From positions 1 through 59,143 of the forward strand of contig JACPSR010000044.1 in assembly GCA_016193175.1 (NCBI GenBank): DNA of 59,143 nt, read 5' to 3'. The notes under the pieces are model-generated. The model was not told the origin of the DNA, did not search any database, and was given only the letters and a program-made list of their open reading frames with translations. Below, piece after piece: positions 1 to 59,143 of this stretch (the stretch's first letter is position 1; the number at the start of each line of letters is the position of its first letter). Origin of the DNA: Candidatus Omnitrophota bacterium. GTDB lineage: Bacteria; Omnitrophota; Gorgyraeia; Aquiviventales; Aquiviventaceae. The position numbers were made by a program, and so were the translations under genes.

Positions 1-3000
1 AGCCGAGGCGGAAGACCACGCCCAACGCAAACAGGATGGTGCGTATGACGACCCCGACGGTTCCCTCTTCCGTGACGACGCGCCCCTTTCGATACGTGAC
101 GAGGGTCGGATGACCAATCTTCCAGGGAGAGGCATACAGGAAACTGCTGAGCAGCACGAGGGAAAGACGCAGGGCAAGCGAATCCGCGCCCAGCGCATCC
201 GGGAATCCAAGGGTCGCGGCAACCCAGGGGACAAAGGACAACAAGACATTGATGCCGCCGGCGAAGAACAGTTCTGAGACCGCCCCCCATGCCGCAATCA
301 CCGGCCCCGGCAGCCACAACCGGCGGAGCGTCGGAATCGCCCAGGCCAACCATCCCACCATCCCCAGCGCCTGACCTCCCTCCTGATCCGCGGCTGGCTC
401 GGCGACGCGCGCGGCGACATCCTCGTGCGGAGCGCGGGCATAGAAGAACGCCTTCGCGCGTTCCTCAAGCGCATTTGTGGGAGGATGGGCGGTCCAATTC
501 CGCAAGTCGACATAGGCTCGCTCCTCAACCTCCGCCACACGGAGCGGCGCCGATGAGCCAGGGAGCTCCTTGAGATCGGAGAGCACGCGCTCGATCCGCT
601 CCATGGCGCTGGCGCTACGATTTACGCGTTCGGCAACGGCCTCGCCCCACAGCTGCTTGAGGTCGACATGCGCAAACCGCTTCCCATCCCTCATCTCCCA
701 GATCGCGACCGGCACTGGCTTGCCCGCGCGAGCACGATGAGCGAGCTCCTTCAGCCCAGCCACGATCGTGGCTGCCTCAGCCAGCGGTTGGCTCATCCGA
801 TCCACGAATTTCTCAAAGCGCTTCCTGTTTTCCAAGCCGAGCTTCGCGTAGAACTCGAGCGATTGGAAAGCCGTCGACAAGTGCTTCATGGTATCGCGCA
901 GCAAGGCCCCCGACTCAGGAGCCTGCGCGATTCCCTCAATCGCATCACGCACGGCGGCCAAGCGCCGCTGTGCGTCTTCCAACGCCACGTTGAACGTCTC
1001 CGGATCCACTGGGACCTTCGGGTCGCTGACCATCCCAAACAGGTACGTGACCTTATTGAGGTGGCCGCGGAGCGCTTTCTCAAGCGGCTCGGCTTGATCT
1101 GCGACCTCCGGCTCAAGCACCCGCTGCTCTGTTGCAAAGGGAACGCTCGGCTCCGTCCGGCGCTCGGAGAGAATCTTGCCTGCCTGGAGCGCCATGATGA
1201 GCGTCTCGAGGGATTCCCCAATGAGCCCCGTGTTGATCTGGATCGCGCCAAGCGCATTGACGATGTCGTAGGCCTGGAGTGGGTCGCCCTTTCTCACGGT
1301 ACGCAAGATCGCCTGCATGCCGAAGCCTCGAGCGTCCGTCCGCGCGGCCGAGAGGTGGTGATGGTGCCCAAGGAGCTCCATGATCGACGAAACGGTTGAG
1401 GGAACGGCGCTGACGCGATCTCGGAGAGCGATGAGCCGCGCTCGAACGGCGGCGACGCGCGCCGCGTAGTCCTGGCCCGCTGGCAGCTCCGCCACGAGTC
1501 TCGGACCCTCCGCTCGAAGGACCGTCATCGCGTCTCTGATGACCGCCACGTGCGGCTTAAGCGCGGCAGCCAGCTCGCCGGCGGCCTCGCGAATCGCCAG
1601 CTCCTTGACGCGCGGCATGATCGCGTCGAGGTCAATGAGGTTGGTCGAGCCTGGATCGCTCAGGAACGTGACCTCCGGCATCATCGAGAGGGCCGTCAGG
1701 ATCGACTGGATTGCCCCAAACGCGTCGTCCATCTCTGCAATGAACTCCTGGATCTGTTCTTCGCTCAAGGTCCCCTTCTCCAACCCATCCGCCACGATCC
1801 CTGCGTACCCGTTGAGTGAATGGAGGGAATCGTTGACAAGATAGTGGAGGAGGTTCCAAACGAGCAGCCACTTGTCCTTTGCCTCCTTCGTATGGACAGG
1901 AGTCACTTGAAGCTCCCAAACCTTCAGCCGGTCGATGAGCCTCTGGATCGCGTTGTCGAGCTCCCCGGCTTTCGTCTTGAGCGTCACTCGATCGCCGGAT
2001 CTCACGGCATCCGTGAACGAGGCGAAGCGAAGGTCGATCCGGAGGATATCCGCCTGCGATTCATCCACGAACTGCTGCGTGAGCGCGCGCAGCCGGGCCG
2101 CATCCGGGAATTGCACAAGGATCGATCCGTCAGACTGCGACACGAACCAGCGCGGATTCGTGGTGTCTTCGTTCAGCTCGCTCAGGGCGACCTCAAGCGC
2201 CGCCTGGTCCATGCCGAATCGGTTGATGTCATCGGCTCGCACCACTCCGGCCCGGGCGCTGCTCAACGTGGCGATCAGTTCATCCTTTGGGATCGCCGCC
2301 AGGCCGCCACCCATCATCCCAAGAAGGAGCTCTTCATGCGCATACCCGGCCTTGATGAGCCTCTCATAGCGCTCCTGACCAGAAGATTTCTCTGATAAGT
2401 CTGGCACTTTTGGATCGTGAAAGTTGGCGTCGATGGCAGCCGGCGTCATACGCCCCAGCCGCTCGATGATGAGCTTCTTGTTGTAGATCACAACGACATC
2501 CCCTTTCGAGCTTGTGGGGTGAGCTGCGATAAAGACCGTAGGAAGGTCAGGATGATTCTGGAACGCACCAATCAGCGTCTGCGACTTCTCGCGCGAAATG
2601 CCAAGCTCTCCAGCCGCGACGAGAAGATCGAATGCTGACCAGTCCATCTTCGGCTGATCCGCGAGCTTTTGCACAATGTACTCCAAGAACTGCAGGGAGA
2701 CATCCGGCTCCGAAGGCTGGCCTTCTTGTTGGCGGCCTTCCCCAACCCTCCCCAGCGCAAGGCCGAGGGCCACGAGAACGGGCGCAAGACCCACGACGAT
2801 CCACGGATGGAGAAAGGCTAACCCTGCGCGCGTCACCTCCGGTTGACCTGATGCGGCCAGAGCGCCGAAGATGAGGGAGGTCTGGAGGACGCTGAGGATC
2901 CAGATCGGAAGCTGTTGGCTCACATCGTCTGTGCGTCGAGGTGTGCGTCGCTGTCGGTGTGGCCGTTGATCAGGGCTCGCCGGCGCGTGTGGGCGCTCCC

Positions 3001-57354: not shown

Positions 57355-59143
57355 CGACACTCGACTTCGGACTTCGGACTTCGGACTTCGGACTAAATAC
57401 GCTCTCGTCAACGCTGAATCCTTTCGCCTTGAGCTCCTCCAAGAACGTCGGGGGCTGGCCTGTCGGTTTGAACAACCCCACCGCCTCTCCCTTCGGCCCC
57501 ACCCCCTGCTGGTGGAAGACAAAGAGATTTCTGAAGAGGATGTCGGCGCGCTCGTCCATCCCGGTCACTTCAGTGATGTGGGTGATCTTCCGCGAGCCAT
57601 CGGTGAATCGCGCCGTATGGACGATGAGGTGGATCGCTGACGCGATCTGCTCGCGGATCGCCCGCACCGGGAGGTCCACGTTGCCCATCAAGACCAGCGA
57701 GTCGAGGCGGGCGATGACATCTTGAGGAGAATTGGCGTGGAGGGTCGTCAGGGAGCCGTCGTGCCCCGTGTTCATCGCCTGCAGCATGTCGAGCGTCTCT
57801 TCGCCGCGGCACTCCCCGATGATGATCCGGTCGGGTCGCATCCGCAGGGTGTTCCGGAAGAGCTGGCGGATCGTGATCGCCCCCTTCCCCTCCACGTTCG
57901 CCTGGCGGCTCTCGAGCGGGATCCAGTGTTCCTGGTCGAGGCGCAGCTCCGCCGCGTCCTCAATGGTGATGATCCGCTCATCCTTCGGAACAGGGGATGA
58001 GAGCACGTTGAGCACCGTCGTCTTGCCGGAGCCGGTCCCGCCGGAGACGATGATGTTCTTCCTCGCCTTGACGCAGATATCCAGGAACTCGGCCATCGCT
58101 CGGCTGAGCGTGCCGAAGGCGATGAGGTCCTCCATCGTGTAGCGTTCCCGGCTGAACTTCCGGATGGAGAGCATCGGGCCTTTGATGGAGAGCGGGGGGA
58201 TGATGGCGTTGACCCTGGAGCCATCCGGCAACCGGGCGTCGACCATCGGGGTAGACTCGTCAATCCGGCGGCCGAGCGGCGCGACGATCCGCTCGATGAC
58301 CGTGAGGAGCTGCTCGTTCGAGAGAAACTTCCTTCCGGTCAGGAACAGCTTGCCGCGCTTCTCGATATAGACCTGGTCTTTCGCGTTCACCAGGATGTCC
58401 GAGATCTCCGGATCGGCCATGAAGTCCTCAAGGGGGCCGAGACCCAGCGCGTCATCTACGATCTCCTTGACGAGCTGGAGCCGCTGCTCGCGCCCCGCCA
58501 CGAACCCTCCCTCCTCGGCCAGGAGCTCGAGGGTGACCTGCGCCGTCTGCTCCCGAAGCTGCTTGGCTTTCTGCGGGTCGTTCAACGTCTGCAGGTCCAT
58601 CCGCTTGAGGTCGAAGCGCTCGATCAGCTTTGCACGGATCCGTCGTTTGAGCGACGTGACGGGGTCTTCGGTCTCCGCGAGCGGAGCCGAGGGGCCGGCG
58701 TCCAATGGGATAGCGACGGTCTGCGTAGTGACCGCAGGCACCCTGGAGCGGTCGATCGTCAGTTGCTCCACAAAAAATTCCGGGGTCTCGATGAGCGACT
58801 TGGCGAACCGCCTGAAGGATGCCTGGATCCGCGCGCCGTTGCCGGAGACCGAAAACGGCAGGCCCTGGTTCACCGATAGCCCCACCGTCCTCCCATCCGA
58901 GGGGATCTCGGCGACCACCGCCGCGGGGCACTGCTCTTTGATCTCCCGAGAGCGGACGTTGCCGTGGCTCTCGGCGCGGTTGATGACAACCTTGACCATC
59001 TGCAGAGGGAACTGCAAGGAGGCCAAGAGCTCAATGGTCCGCTTGGTATGGCGAAGGGAGATGACGTCAGGGGTCGTCACGAGGAGGATGAGGTTCGAGT
59101 GCTCAAAGGCGGTGACGGCGAGCTCGCTGAAGACGGAGCCCGC
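57311..59143 (-). CDS. cpaF: TadZ/CpaE-like (ParA/MinD-type) domain fused to the CpaF/TadA secretion ATPase; 5'-truncated by the right window edge.
   Basis: The frame is open to the edge: AGSVFSELAVTAFEHSNLILLVTTPDVISLRHTKRTIELL...VVINRA is a CpaE/TadZ-like C-terminal half. A CpaF core follows without a stop: GPLEDFMADPEISDILVN, Walker A SGGTGSGKTT, ITIEDAAEL, RMRPDRIIIGECRGEE and GHDGSLTTLHAN. Confidence 0.85.
   Translation of the reverse strand, partial: AGSVFSELAVTAFEHSNLILLVTTPDVISLRHTKRTIELLASLQFPLQMVKVVINRAESHGNVRSREIKEQCPAAVVAEIPSDGRTVGLSVNQGLPFSVSGNGARIQASFRRFAKSLIETPEFFVEQLTIDRSRVPAVTTQTVAIPLDAGPSAPLAETEDPVTSLKRRIRAKLIERFDLKRMDLQTLNDPQKAKQLREQTAQVTLELLAEEGGFVAGREQRLQLVKEIVDDALGLGPLEDFMADPEISDILVNAKDQVYIEKRGKLFLTGRKFLSNEQLLTVIERIVAPLGRRIDESTPMVDARLPDGSRVNAIIPPLSIKGPMLSIRKFSRERYTMEDLIAFGTLSRAMAEFLDICVKARKNIIVSGGTGSGKTTVLNVLSSPVPKDERIITIEDAAELRLDQEHWIPLESRQANVEGKGAITIRQLFRNTLRMRPDRIIIGECRGEETLDMLQAMNTGHDGSLTTLHANSPQDVIARLDSLVLMGNVDLPVRAIREQIASAIHLIVHTARFTDGSRKITHITEVTGMDERADILFRNLFVFHQQGVGPKGEAVGLFKPTGQPPTFLEELKAKGFSVDESVFSPKSEVRSPKSSVDGGDPEPHAPDSGS
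57361..57396. repeat. Heptamer tandem repeat (gacttcg) x4-5 at the cpaF/DUF192 junction.
   Basis: tcgacttcggacttcggacttcggacttcggact. Each unit contains C-UUCG-G. It is translated as SPKSEVRSPKS at the 3' end of the cpaF ORF. Confidence 0.85.

Follow-up and report, generated by a model that had tools for sequence, protein, structure and literature searches.

A Tad pilus locus in an Omnitrophota bacterium that leads into one 48-kb open reading frame behind a predicted c-di-GMP riboswitch

Very large genes next to pilus-like machinery have been described from the bacterial phylum Omnitrophota. Tad complexes and open reading frames (ORFs) exceeding 20 kb in length are common across the phylum (Seymour et al. 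2023, PMC10066038). Ahead of its giant genes there is generally a system of over 10 genes that resembles type II secretion (T2SS) or type IV pili (T4P) and includes genes with class III signal peptides, and their products carry C39 domains near N-terminal signal peptides, many transmembrane (TM) helices, SecA-like domains, Ser/Thr phosphatases and sometimes an SLT domain (West-Roberts et al. 2023, bioRxiv 10.1101/2023.11.21.568195). In a 2026 preprint (10.64898/2026.06.07.730766), 13 of 14 giants had secretion or pilus genes at their flanks, and a cluster of C39 architectures was recognized. An attack or predation role has already been proposed for the phylum by West-Roberts et al. (2023) and Seymour et al. 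(2023). Here, we describe a stretch of 59,143 nt (contig JACPSR010000044.1, ~62% GC; hereafter, the window) from an uncultivated groundwater Omnitrophota bacterium, in which a compact Tad (type IVc) pilus locus is followed directly by a giant gene. A Tad-linked giant gene with an N-terminal C39 domain is known from this phylum, and the window provides a further example; new at this locus are a conserved c-di-GMP-I riboswitch that precedes the unit running from the pilin genes to the giant gene, and a four-helix-bundle gene that is nested in the C39 domain. With a probability of about 60%, we favor the reading that the Tad operon continues into a single, riboswitch-controlled giant ORF, whose product would be a membrane mosaic polyprotein acting together with the pilus filament in contact.

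Around and downstream of the tadC stop, the window contains three open stretches on the minus strand, namely 46183-47013, which holds an ATG-initiated ORF at 46180-46893; 9009-46619, with 12,537 codons; and 2-9142, with 3,047 codons, which exits at the left edge. The tadC stop (TAG, 46900-46898) is separated by a 4-nt spacer from the ATG of the giant ORF at 46893, which opens the N-terminus MRIDRWLALKRTKAFCVALATLFAAEQAVWG. A preliminary description of this DNA had placed the start at this ATG and had counted about 46.9 kb of open reading broken by two frame changes. We confirm the start and see both frame changes, each of which is a deletion private to the window and not a gene boundary.

Both deletions are out-of-frame. 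The first removes 83 nt at 46571/46572. Two Logan contigs that come from other samples (L016, SRR12113431; L017, SRR12113385), retrieved by a look-up of the 117-aa protein nested in the giant gene, are 100% identical to the window on either side of 46572 and carry the extra 83 nt. These encode LNPERVKSRKAEAGRIAQAVSRVVGQFLR, an LNPERVK...FLR segment that is found in all relatives and is missing from the window, and upon restoring them, the ORF is open from MRIDRWL through the C39 domain. The second deletion removes 50 nt at 9135/9136. An exhaustive HMMER search with a query spanning this junction yielded MBI3082964.1 (P0003), a partial "transglycosylase SLT domain-containing protein" from the metagenome-assembled genome (MAG) GCA_016192565.1. 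Its contig (L015) is 99.9-100% identical to the window from 16408 to 1, keeps the frame continuous, and has 50 extra nt at the junction, which encode RTIEELKATRASLLELI. A codon-usage scan of the window shows the coding signal switching frame at ~9140, with no gap. No repeats longer than 2 nt flank either deletion; further points at which the window departs from the independent assemblies are 9166-9168 (a 3-nt substitution cluster) and 11909 (an in-frame 3-nt indel). The ORF break in L015 itself is a scaffold gap of 39 N, which the window sequence bridges in frame. L015 reaches 2,995 nt past the left edge of the window and places the stop of the giant ORF 1,016 nt beyond position 1, so that the restored ORF comprises (46,893 + 83 + 50 + 1,016)/3 = 16,014 codons including the stop (48,042 nt; 16,013 aa).

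Against a single giant gene, it could be argued that the three frames belong to separate genes, to a pseudogene in decay or to a chimeric assembly: two frame breaks occur in the window itself, and gene calling divides the region, with a partial protein in GenBank and a 163-aa protein called on L016. We consider this very improbable. Both breaks are missing from independent assemblies that are near-identical on either side, the split in L015 is the scaffold gap, stop-free runs of 12,537 and 3,047 codons are impossible by chance, the coding signal hands over directly from frame to frame, and 28 relatives read straight through from the N-terminus. The second open stretch was rejected as a separate gene, as a start codon is lacking near 9142, the coding signal does not break off, and MBI3082964.1 reads through. 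Slipped-strand phase variation at the octamer arrays (CTCGACAG)x3 and (TCGAACCG)x4 (46559-46479) was also rejected: the arrays are identical in L016 and L017, and the change is the 83-nt deletion upstream of them. The concern that the ORF might be a chimera or ridden with stops is thus answered by its continuity in independent assemblies (L016/L017; L015 and its protein). Accordingly, this locus is a fully delimited and independently cross-checked Omnitrophota giant gene, from start to stop over 16,013 codons, with both lesions accounted for.

The junction of tadC and the giant gene recurs outside the window. Scanning GTDB genomes and JGI metagenomes with an alignment of the C39 region, we obtained 9 genome and 23 metagenome loci, nearly all on groundwater or subsurface contigs. 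The order TadB-TadC-conserved N-terminus-C39 is present in 8 of the 8 genome loci with upstream context and in all 19 metagenome loci with upstream DNA. Hence, the possibility that such giant genes are never linked to tad genes in other genomes does not hold, and the junction, invariant across ~27 loci, may serve as a dependable marker. In one genome locus (L006), conservation extends to CpaF, DUF192, the pilin block, the TadG-like gene and a 148-aa gene. In each of the 28 loci that contain the N-terminus (8 genome and 20 metagenome loci), the ORF starting at MRIDxWL remains open to the end of the locus, over up to 4,004 codons, with an N-terminus that is 55-78% identical and always in frame with C39. 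Every relative recovered retains the N-terminal head, consisting of a signal-peptide-like segment, a conserved 120-aa region and C39. Beyond C39, the alignable islands are few (M48, a segment at ~G2900, and a TM-LysM-TM module; G and H denote residues of the 12,537- and the 3,047-codon stretch, respectively), and judging from these alignments, the body of the giant protein appears fast-evolving and modular. Protein-homologue searches gave no match in two cases and two fragments only in another, the index apparently being swamped by low-complexity candidates.

The preliminary description had pointed to giant ORFs reported from Omnitrophota bins without placing the window among them. That membership is borne out by the identity of 99.9-100% between window positions 1-16408 and the GenBank MAG GCA_016192565.1 (Candidatus Omnitrophica) and by the Candidatus Omnitrophota labels of the closest relatives (L006, L009, L010 and L013), an assignment that rests on submitter labels. 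Other relatives are labelled Planctomycetales (L007, L008, L011, L012) or Nitrospirae (L005/L014); these are probably submitter misassignments, i.e., mislabelled bins. A cyanobacterial origin, hinted at by heptamer arrays resembling STRR repeats and by HIP1 sites, was rejected, as HIP1 occurs only 8 times and the relatives are Omnitrophota.

Between the DUF192 gene and the first pilin-like gene, a match to the sigma-70 promoter consensus is followed by a cyclic di-GMP (c-di-GMP) aptamer of the GEMM-I type and by a hairpin with a U-tract that resembles an intrinsic terminator (Table 1). The P2 loop of the aptamer in the window holds an inserted 67-nt hairpin made of heptamer arrays. The 5' arm of the terminator overlaps the 3' strand of aptamer helix P2, and the terminator-like hairpin is the probable expression platform of the riboswitch. 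In the minimum free energy fold without ligand, the terminator forms (z = -8.6) while helix P2 does not, from which c-di-GMP binding should favor read-through; as modeled, the riboswitch would thus act as an ON switch for the unit from the pilins to the giant gene. An aptamer of the GEMM-I clan lies at the same place in 3/3 relatives whose loci reach this intergenic region (L006, L022 and L029), where it scores best as RF03167, the GGC variant (69 bits against a cut-off of 59). A signal scan found no terminator-like site between tadC and the ATG of the giant ORF. With a promoter-like site, riboswitch and terminator ahead of the pilins and no terminator-like site in the gap after tadC, two transcription units are likely: one with the cpaE/tadZ-like gene, cpaF and DUF192, and one with the riboswitch, the pilins, the tadG-like gene, the 148-aa gene, tadB, tadC and the giant gene. 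The earlier picture of an unbroken run from cpaF into the giant gene is therefore to be revised, as these signals (56899-56620) intervene between DUF192 and the pilin block. Through the conserved riboswitch, the timing of giant-gene expression becomes accessible to direct and inexpensive experiments.

The giant ORF was scanned in tiles of 1,000 aa against Pfam, NCBIfam and the PDB. These scans return matches to families that the preliminary description had named, which counters the possibility that the tiles would match none of them: SLT, Hint and two protease-type modules (C39 and M48) were recovered, the two LysM modules are marginal, and PG_binding_3 stays below the Pfam cut-off. Intact catalytic motifs are present in C39 (Cys and His boxes), M48 (HELGH), SLT (ES and GLMQ) and Hint (Cys1...HN). 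The C39 Cys box, TLCSNCAP (~46358), and His box, DHYVVV (~45626), are separated by the nested element described below, and SLT is preceded by a coiled-coil stalk. Of the three protease-type modules that had been announced, the third was not found; a second HExxH motif (THEVTHAV; G9669, ~17615) has no family match and may mark a third protease module or have arisen by chance. A DUF4214-like assignment of the N-terminal 120 aa found no Pfam support and was dropped. For the P-loop region, there was no match to the SecA family and the AF2 model was unusable (pLDDT 37, single-sequence); its motifs resemble an SF2 helicase or SecA NBD1, and it may possibly be an SF2- or SecA-like NTPase.

The Hint domain (Hint/intein match at 1.6e-10) shows Cys1, a TGEH block and, as read from MBI3082964.1, a terminal HN followed by Lys, which makes its junction one of the cleavage type and not of the splicing type. 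The "toxin-like fold" of the preliminary description probably corresponds to the ParE/RelE-like stretch some 250 residues after Hint, for which we found a weak match only. Its AF2 model (pLDDT 51) has the beta-alpha-alpha-beta-beta-beta order of RelE/ParE, and the top Foldseek matches are HigB2, RelE and ParE, at E = 6e-3 to 0.3 and TM-scores below 0.45.

One could read this arrangement as a polymorphic-toxin-like effector, in which a pretoxin-type Hint frees the downstream ParE/RelE-like toxin, possibly along with further modules, and the Tad/T2SS-like apparatus delivers the toxin into a contacted cell. The Pfam PT-HINT match (1.4e-8), the distance of the RelE-like segment from Hint and the cleavage-type junction would all suit such an effector. 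We nevertheless hold it to be quite improbable, since the RelE-like match is weak (see above), this module is internal, with more than 4,000 residues after it, whereas polymorphic toxins carry their toxin at the C-terminus, no immunity gene is evident, both modules are predicted to be cytoplasmic in the producer, and Tad systems are not known for translocating such cargo.

That last prediction comes from the topology of the giant protein, which we derived with a crude method, Kyte-Doolittle hydropathy (19-residue windows with a mean of at least 1.7) combined with the positive-inside rule. It yielded 19 TM candidates. The two LysM hairpins are built alike, with a K/R-rich flank, a TM segment, a LysM loop of ~140-160 aa, a second TM segment and another K/R-rich flank (K/R flank counts of 5/1 and 0/7 for hairpin 1 and of 4/0 and 0/4 for hairpin 2), a pattern that assigns the two LysM loops to the membrane's outer face and PP2C to the inside. 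SLT follows TM segment H188 and the coiled-coil stalk and by parity would lie outside, with Hint and the RelE-like module inside. These patterns indicate that LysM is external and that PP2C, Hint and the RelE-like module are cytoplasmic, with SLT probably on the outer side. They also indicate that the giant product is a multi-pass inner-membrane mosaic, anchored in the envelope. Such a local topology would narrow the workings of the published hypothesis of an attack on the prey cell wall.

From these elements, the following mechanism can be proposed. The giant gene would be co-transcribed with the pilin, tadB and tadC genes, and c-di-GMP binding to the aptamer would switch the unit on, as the bound aptamer would hold the strand that otherwise forms the terminator. 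The two TM-LysM-TM hairpins and the stalked SLT would face the periplasm or the exterior, where they may bind and cut peptidoglycan, with PP2C, the P-loop NTPase-like region, Hint and the ParE/RelE-like module facing the cytoplasm. Cleavage by C39, M48 and Hint would probably yield fragments of the polypeptide that remain together at the envelope. In the least certain step, the Tad filament and the giant assembly may serve attachment and cell-wall remodelling in the epibiotic or predatory contact proposed for Omnitrophota.

The preliminary description had proposed a pilus-coupled, contact-dependent attachment or attack machine. The linkage to the Tad genes stands; as to attack, which could at most be inferred, the predicted topology is no less compatible with an envelope-anchored scaffold or a polyprotein that processes itself than with a secreted weapon, and it suggests that the protein acts at least in part on the envelope of the producer itself. 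A further explanation is that the giant protein is a housekeeping envelope scaffold, with LysM stapling the Tad machine to the producer's own sacculus, SLT opening a gap in the peptidoglycan, and no action on a partner cell. Dedicated lytic transglycosylases open peptidoglycan for flagella, type III secretion systems and type IV secretion systems. The placement of LysM (and, by parity, of SLT) at the outer side of the inner membrane of the producer would agree with a scaffold, as would the additional match of the SLT region to the NCBIfam model of the Borrelia flagellar-assembly lytic transglycosylase, the strict tadB/tadC linkage in all relatives, and the mostly membrane-anchored or cytoplasmic appearance of the protein. 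A scaffold has, however, no obvious need for 16,000 residues, PP2C, Hint, a RelE-like module and two proteases; between relatives, both the sequence and the order of the modules change very rapidly and only a few islands align, which is more typical of surface or interaction proteins; and classical Tad systems work without such a protein. On balance, we consider a pure scaffold unlikely, yet well worth weighing.

Several points weigh against our favored reading, in which the giant protein acts with the Tad filament in contact. The secretin and prepilin peptidase are absent from inside the window. If the deletions are real alleles, the window copy cannot make the full protein. Within the protein, the LysM assignments are marginal and those of the RelE-like and P-loop modules weak, and the processing by C39, M48 and Hint is deduced from motifs alone. 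Parity is inconsistent over the first ~6,800 residues (the signal peptide, a weak TM segment at 3560, then 6433 and 6798), so that only the local topology is safe. If LysM and SLT face the producer's own periplasm, there is no visible route to another cell.

The C39 domain is interrupted, between its Cys and His boxes, by an element resembling an intervening sequence (IVS), whose nested gene belongs to PF05635, the family of 23S rRNA-intervening sequence proteins, which are four-helix bundles. The gene is flanked by inverted heptamer arrays, (GGCTCAA)x4 and (TTGAGCC)x4, that fold into a ~45-bp stem (z = -7), and the giant frame crosses the entire element stop-free. We counted 11 intragenic copies: six at one C39 site (the window, L014, L031/L032, L036/L037 and L038), four in the N-terminal linker (L008, L011 and two in L012), and one that is cut off at the start of L005/L014; other copies lie between tad genes. 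Relative to the host, each of the 10 complete intragenic copies occupies the +1 frame. In 9 of the 9 copies tested, the host frame contains no stop, where 1.4-4.8 stops would be expected from shuffles of synonymous codons (P = 0.0007-0.15 per copy), whereas divergent intergenic copies have 3-8 stops, matching the shuffles. Relatives that lack the nested gene have only 7-aa periodic peptides derived from heptamer arrays in their C39 loop. In L012, one nested copy (5407-5523) is truncated by a premature stop in its own frame, with the giant frame still open, consistent with selection on the host frame and not on the nested gene. A diversity-generating retroelement (DGR)/Avd reading was discarded, because bAvd reached only 9e-6, below its cut-off, and no scanned ORF of the window has a reverse transcriptase domain.

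Tentatively, and with more doubt than confidence, we suggest that the PF05635 gene represents a class of IVS-like mobile elements adapted to protein-coding hosts. If this were true, ribosomes making the giant protein would read across a second gene, one equipped with a ribosome-binding site of its own and enclosed by the stem. Cleavage of the stem by RNase III could then split the 48-kb mRNA, parting the secretion/C39 head from the body and adding a second regulatory layer downstream of the c-di-GMP riboswitch. The nested gene would offer a clean natural example of a catalytic domain that tolerates a mobile element without closure of the host frame.

Short tandem arrays of 7-, 8- and 15-nt units, often paired, also occur elsewhere in the window (46479-46559, 48881-48948, 55158-55217, 56655-56716, 57085-57156 and 57363-57394), and some fold into hairpins (z = -5 at 56648-56724). 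In the tad region, the arrays lie between genes; within the giant gene, translation turns them into periodic linkers (e.g., ARQLDSS and VEPSNRR).

All genes with Pfam or NCBIfam support lie on the minus strand, as had been described, and the four longest ORFs of the plus strand gave no family match. The gene overlaps reported earlier are all present: ATGA at 53785, GTGA at 48696, and at 47815 a 1-nt TGATG. Positions 46925-55192 are 100% identical in three Logan contigs. Coordinates of the small genes were taken from gene calls on identical Logan contigs, and class III motifs were read from the translations. The pilin-like and pseudopilin genes amount to ~11, of which ~10 precede the TadG-like gene and one, Flp-like, follows it; the 61-aa Flp-like protein carries the motif GQGTLEYLLVL. 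Scores for the pilin-type families are 5e-5 (Class_IIIsignal), 0.005 (Flp_Fap), 0.004 (TadE) and 8.7e-7 (Tad, PF13400), several of these falling under the curated cut-offs. At the right edge, the part resembling MinD/CpaE(TadZ) shares the open frame of CpaF with no stop between them, and may represent a TadZ-TadA fusion or merely an unresolved start codon. An exact-protein look-up of TadC (GTG start) and of a 237-aa ORF found no match. Neither a prepilin peptidase (TadV/CpaA) nor a secretin (RcpA/CpaC) was detected in the scanned ORFs of the window, in line with the preliminary description; they may lie upstream of the right edge. Downstream of the giant ORF, L015 holds an incomplete gene (17532-19485) whose product exceeds 651 aa and has an MraZ/SpoVT-AbrB-like domain.

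Table 1. Coordinates of the features in the window, and of the aptamers in three relatives. G and H denote residues of the 12,537- and 3,047-codon stretches of the giant ORF.
Feature	Position	Strand	Support and remarks
MinD/CpaE(TadZ)-like C-terminus	58780-59143, right edge	-	NCBIfam minD_bact, residues 2-99
CpaF/TadA secretion ATPase	57311-59080 (open frame to 59143)	-	Pfam T2SSE 2e-63; NCBIfam TadA-family ATPase 2.1e-105
DUF192 protein	56896-57522	-	Pfam DUF192 7e-10; kept after CpaF in L006
Sigma-70-like promoter match	56870-56899	-	10/12 consensus positions plus TG extension; consensus match only
c-di-GMP-I (GEMM-I) riboswitch aptamer	56633-56772	-	Rfam RF01051, 53.6 bits (gathering score 35)
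Intrinsic-terminator-like hairpin and U-tract	56620-56647	-	12-bp stem, then TTTTTGTTT
Pilin block, ~10 small genes	51669-56512	-	mostly Flp/TadE-type class III signal-peptide N-termini, G/xxxxEY-like motif
Pilin block, first five genes	56057-56512; 55146-55694; 54595-55050; 54417-54602 (61-aa Flp-like); 54095-54454	-	
Pilin block, last five genes	53782-54111; 53210-53785; 52767-53117; 51962-52789; 51669-51971 (TadE-like)	-	
TadG-like protein, 738 aa	49408-51624	-	Pfam Tad (PF13400) 8.7e-7; exact protein on four Logan contigs
Conserved 148-aa protein	48956-49402	-	Logan gene calls; kept in L006
Flp-like pilin after TadG-like gene	48693-48965	-	Logan gene calls
TadB	47815-48690	-	Pfam T2SSF 7.8e-17
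TadC	46898-47815	-	Pfam T2SSF 4e-14
Giant ORF, segment 1	46572-46893	-	conserved N-terminus MRIDRWL..., signal-peptide-like h-region; ends at 83-nt deletion
Giant ORF, segment 2	9136-46571	-	body of the 12,537-codon open stretch
Giant ORF, segment 3	1-9135	-	follows 50-nt deletion; extends 1,016 nt past the window to the stop
Peptidase_C39	45495-46493 (G288-375)	-	Pfam 1.8e-8; relatives' alignment; BLASTP against P0001, P0002
IVS-like nested element, 448 nt	45782-46229	-	between C39 Cys box and His box
Nested PF05635 gene, 117 codons	46177-45824	-	PF05635 2.7e-38; +1 frame; own AAAGGAG ribosome-binding site
Peptidase_M48 (HELGH)	39615-40184 (G2146-2335)	-	Pfam 3.8e-12; NCBIfam LoiP, HtpX
PG_binding_3	~G3100	-	below Pfam cut-off
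P-loop GPTGSGKT and DVHE	32400-32822 (G4611)	-	motif scan; Pfam T2SSE E = 0.006, DEAD E = 0.037
TPR	G6188	-	E 9e-6, just under Pfam cut-off
TM-LysM-TM hairpin 1	25686-26228 (LysM G6844-6893)	-	LysM at Pfam cut-off; 60% identical to L006 module
PP2C-type Ser/Thr phosphatase	23841-24494 (G7376-7593)	-	NCBIfam Stp1_PP2C 4.8e-46; PDB PppA, PstP 1e-20
Bacterial-intein-like (BIL-type) Hint	12426-13133 (G11163-11398)	-	Pfam Hint, Intein_splicing, PT-HINT; PDB 2lwy 4e-8
ParE/RelE-like module, ~250 residues after Hint	11295-11672 (G11650-11775, IGDHRLYYVYSETGRVVTLLAF)	-	Pfam ParE_toxin E = 0.058
TM-LysM-TM hairpin 2	9939-10538 (LysM G12100-12150)	-	LysM 9e-4, just below cut-off
SLT lytic transglycosylase	7355-7693 (H484-596)	-	Pfam SLT 3.3e-19; PDB MltC, EmtA; NCBIfam
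Aptamers of relatives	L006 1299-1417; L022 1866-1950; L029 742-853		Rfam GEMM-I clan

Among described systems, the giant ORF compares most directly with the Omnitrophota giants ("Archaeovorin"-type and related). It shares with them the phylum and the site just downstream of a T2SS/T4P/Tad-like cluster that contains many class III signal-peptide genes; a signal peptide with C39, many TM helices, TPR, a Ser/Thr phosphatase and the occasional SLT; and few annotated domains with rapid divergence among relatives. At 48,042 nt, it exceeds the 20-kb criterion of Seymour et al., whereas at ~16,000 aa, its product stays under the 30,000-aa "giant" threshold of West-Roberts et al. The 1,000-aa tile scans with Pfam and NCBIfam, in which divergent copies could be missed, found none of the Archaeovorin-defining glycosyltransferase, HEAT, NUDIX, methyltransferase and GGDEF domains and no glycosyl hydrolase, and the Pfam scans of the tiles gave no match to dockerin or TSP3 repeats. 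SecA_DEAD could not be demonstrated from the GPTGSGKT/DVHE motifs and the weak DEAD and T2SSE matches; the single visible downstream gene is MraZ/AbrB-like, unlike the PilZ genes reported to follow other giants; and the lineage is high in GC (~62%). Searches of the main texts of the Omnitrophota giant-gene papers, covering not every paper for every term, found no BIL-type Hint, TM-LysM-TM, RelE-like module, riboswitch or nested gene.

With classical Tad/Flp loci (Aggregatibacter tad, Caulobacter cpa), the window has in common CpaF/TadA, TadB, TadC, Flp-like pilins with a G/xxxxEY-type motif, TadE- and TadG-like pseudopilins, a MinD/TadZ-like ATPase and compact, overlapping genes. It differs in that a 48-kb gene instead of tadD-G follows tadC, pilin-like genes are unusually numerous, a riboswitch lies between cpaF/DUF192 and the pilins, and the secretin and prepilin peptidase fall outside the window. 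As in other c-di-GMP-I riboswitches (RF01051, RF03167), the score is above the gathering threshold, pilus genes, a typical regulon, lie downstream, and a terminator overlaps the aptamer; what differs is the 67-nt repeat-array hairpin in the P2 loop and the presence of a 48-kb gene within the downstream unit. With polymorphic toxins that have a pretoxin Hint, the locus shares the Hint domain, whereas the RelE-like module is weak and internal, ~250 aa downstream, and no immunity gene is evident.

For the nested element, literature searches for PF05635 elements within coding genes found only the paper on the Coxiella burnetii IVS (PMC4990558), and the closest known counterpart is the 23S rRNA IVS of Coxiella or Leptospira. 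Like the 428-nt element in the 23S rRNA of C. burnetii, it measures ~450 nt and has a PF05635 ORF between inverted repeats that form a long stem. It differs from the rRNA element in that it sits in a protein-coding gene, within a peptidase domain, its stem arms are tandem heptamer arrays, and the host frame runs through it stop-free with the nested gene always in the +1 frame.

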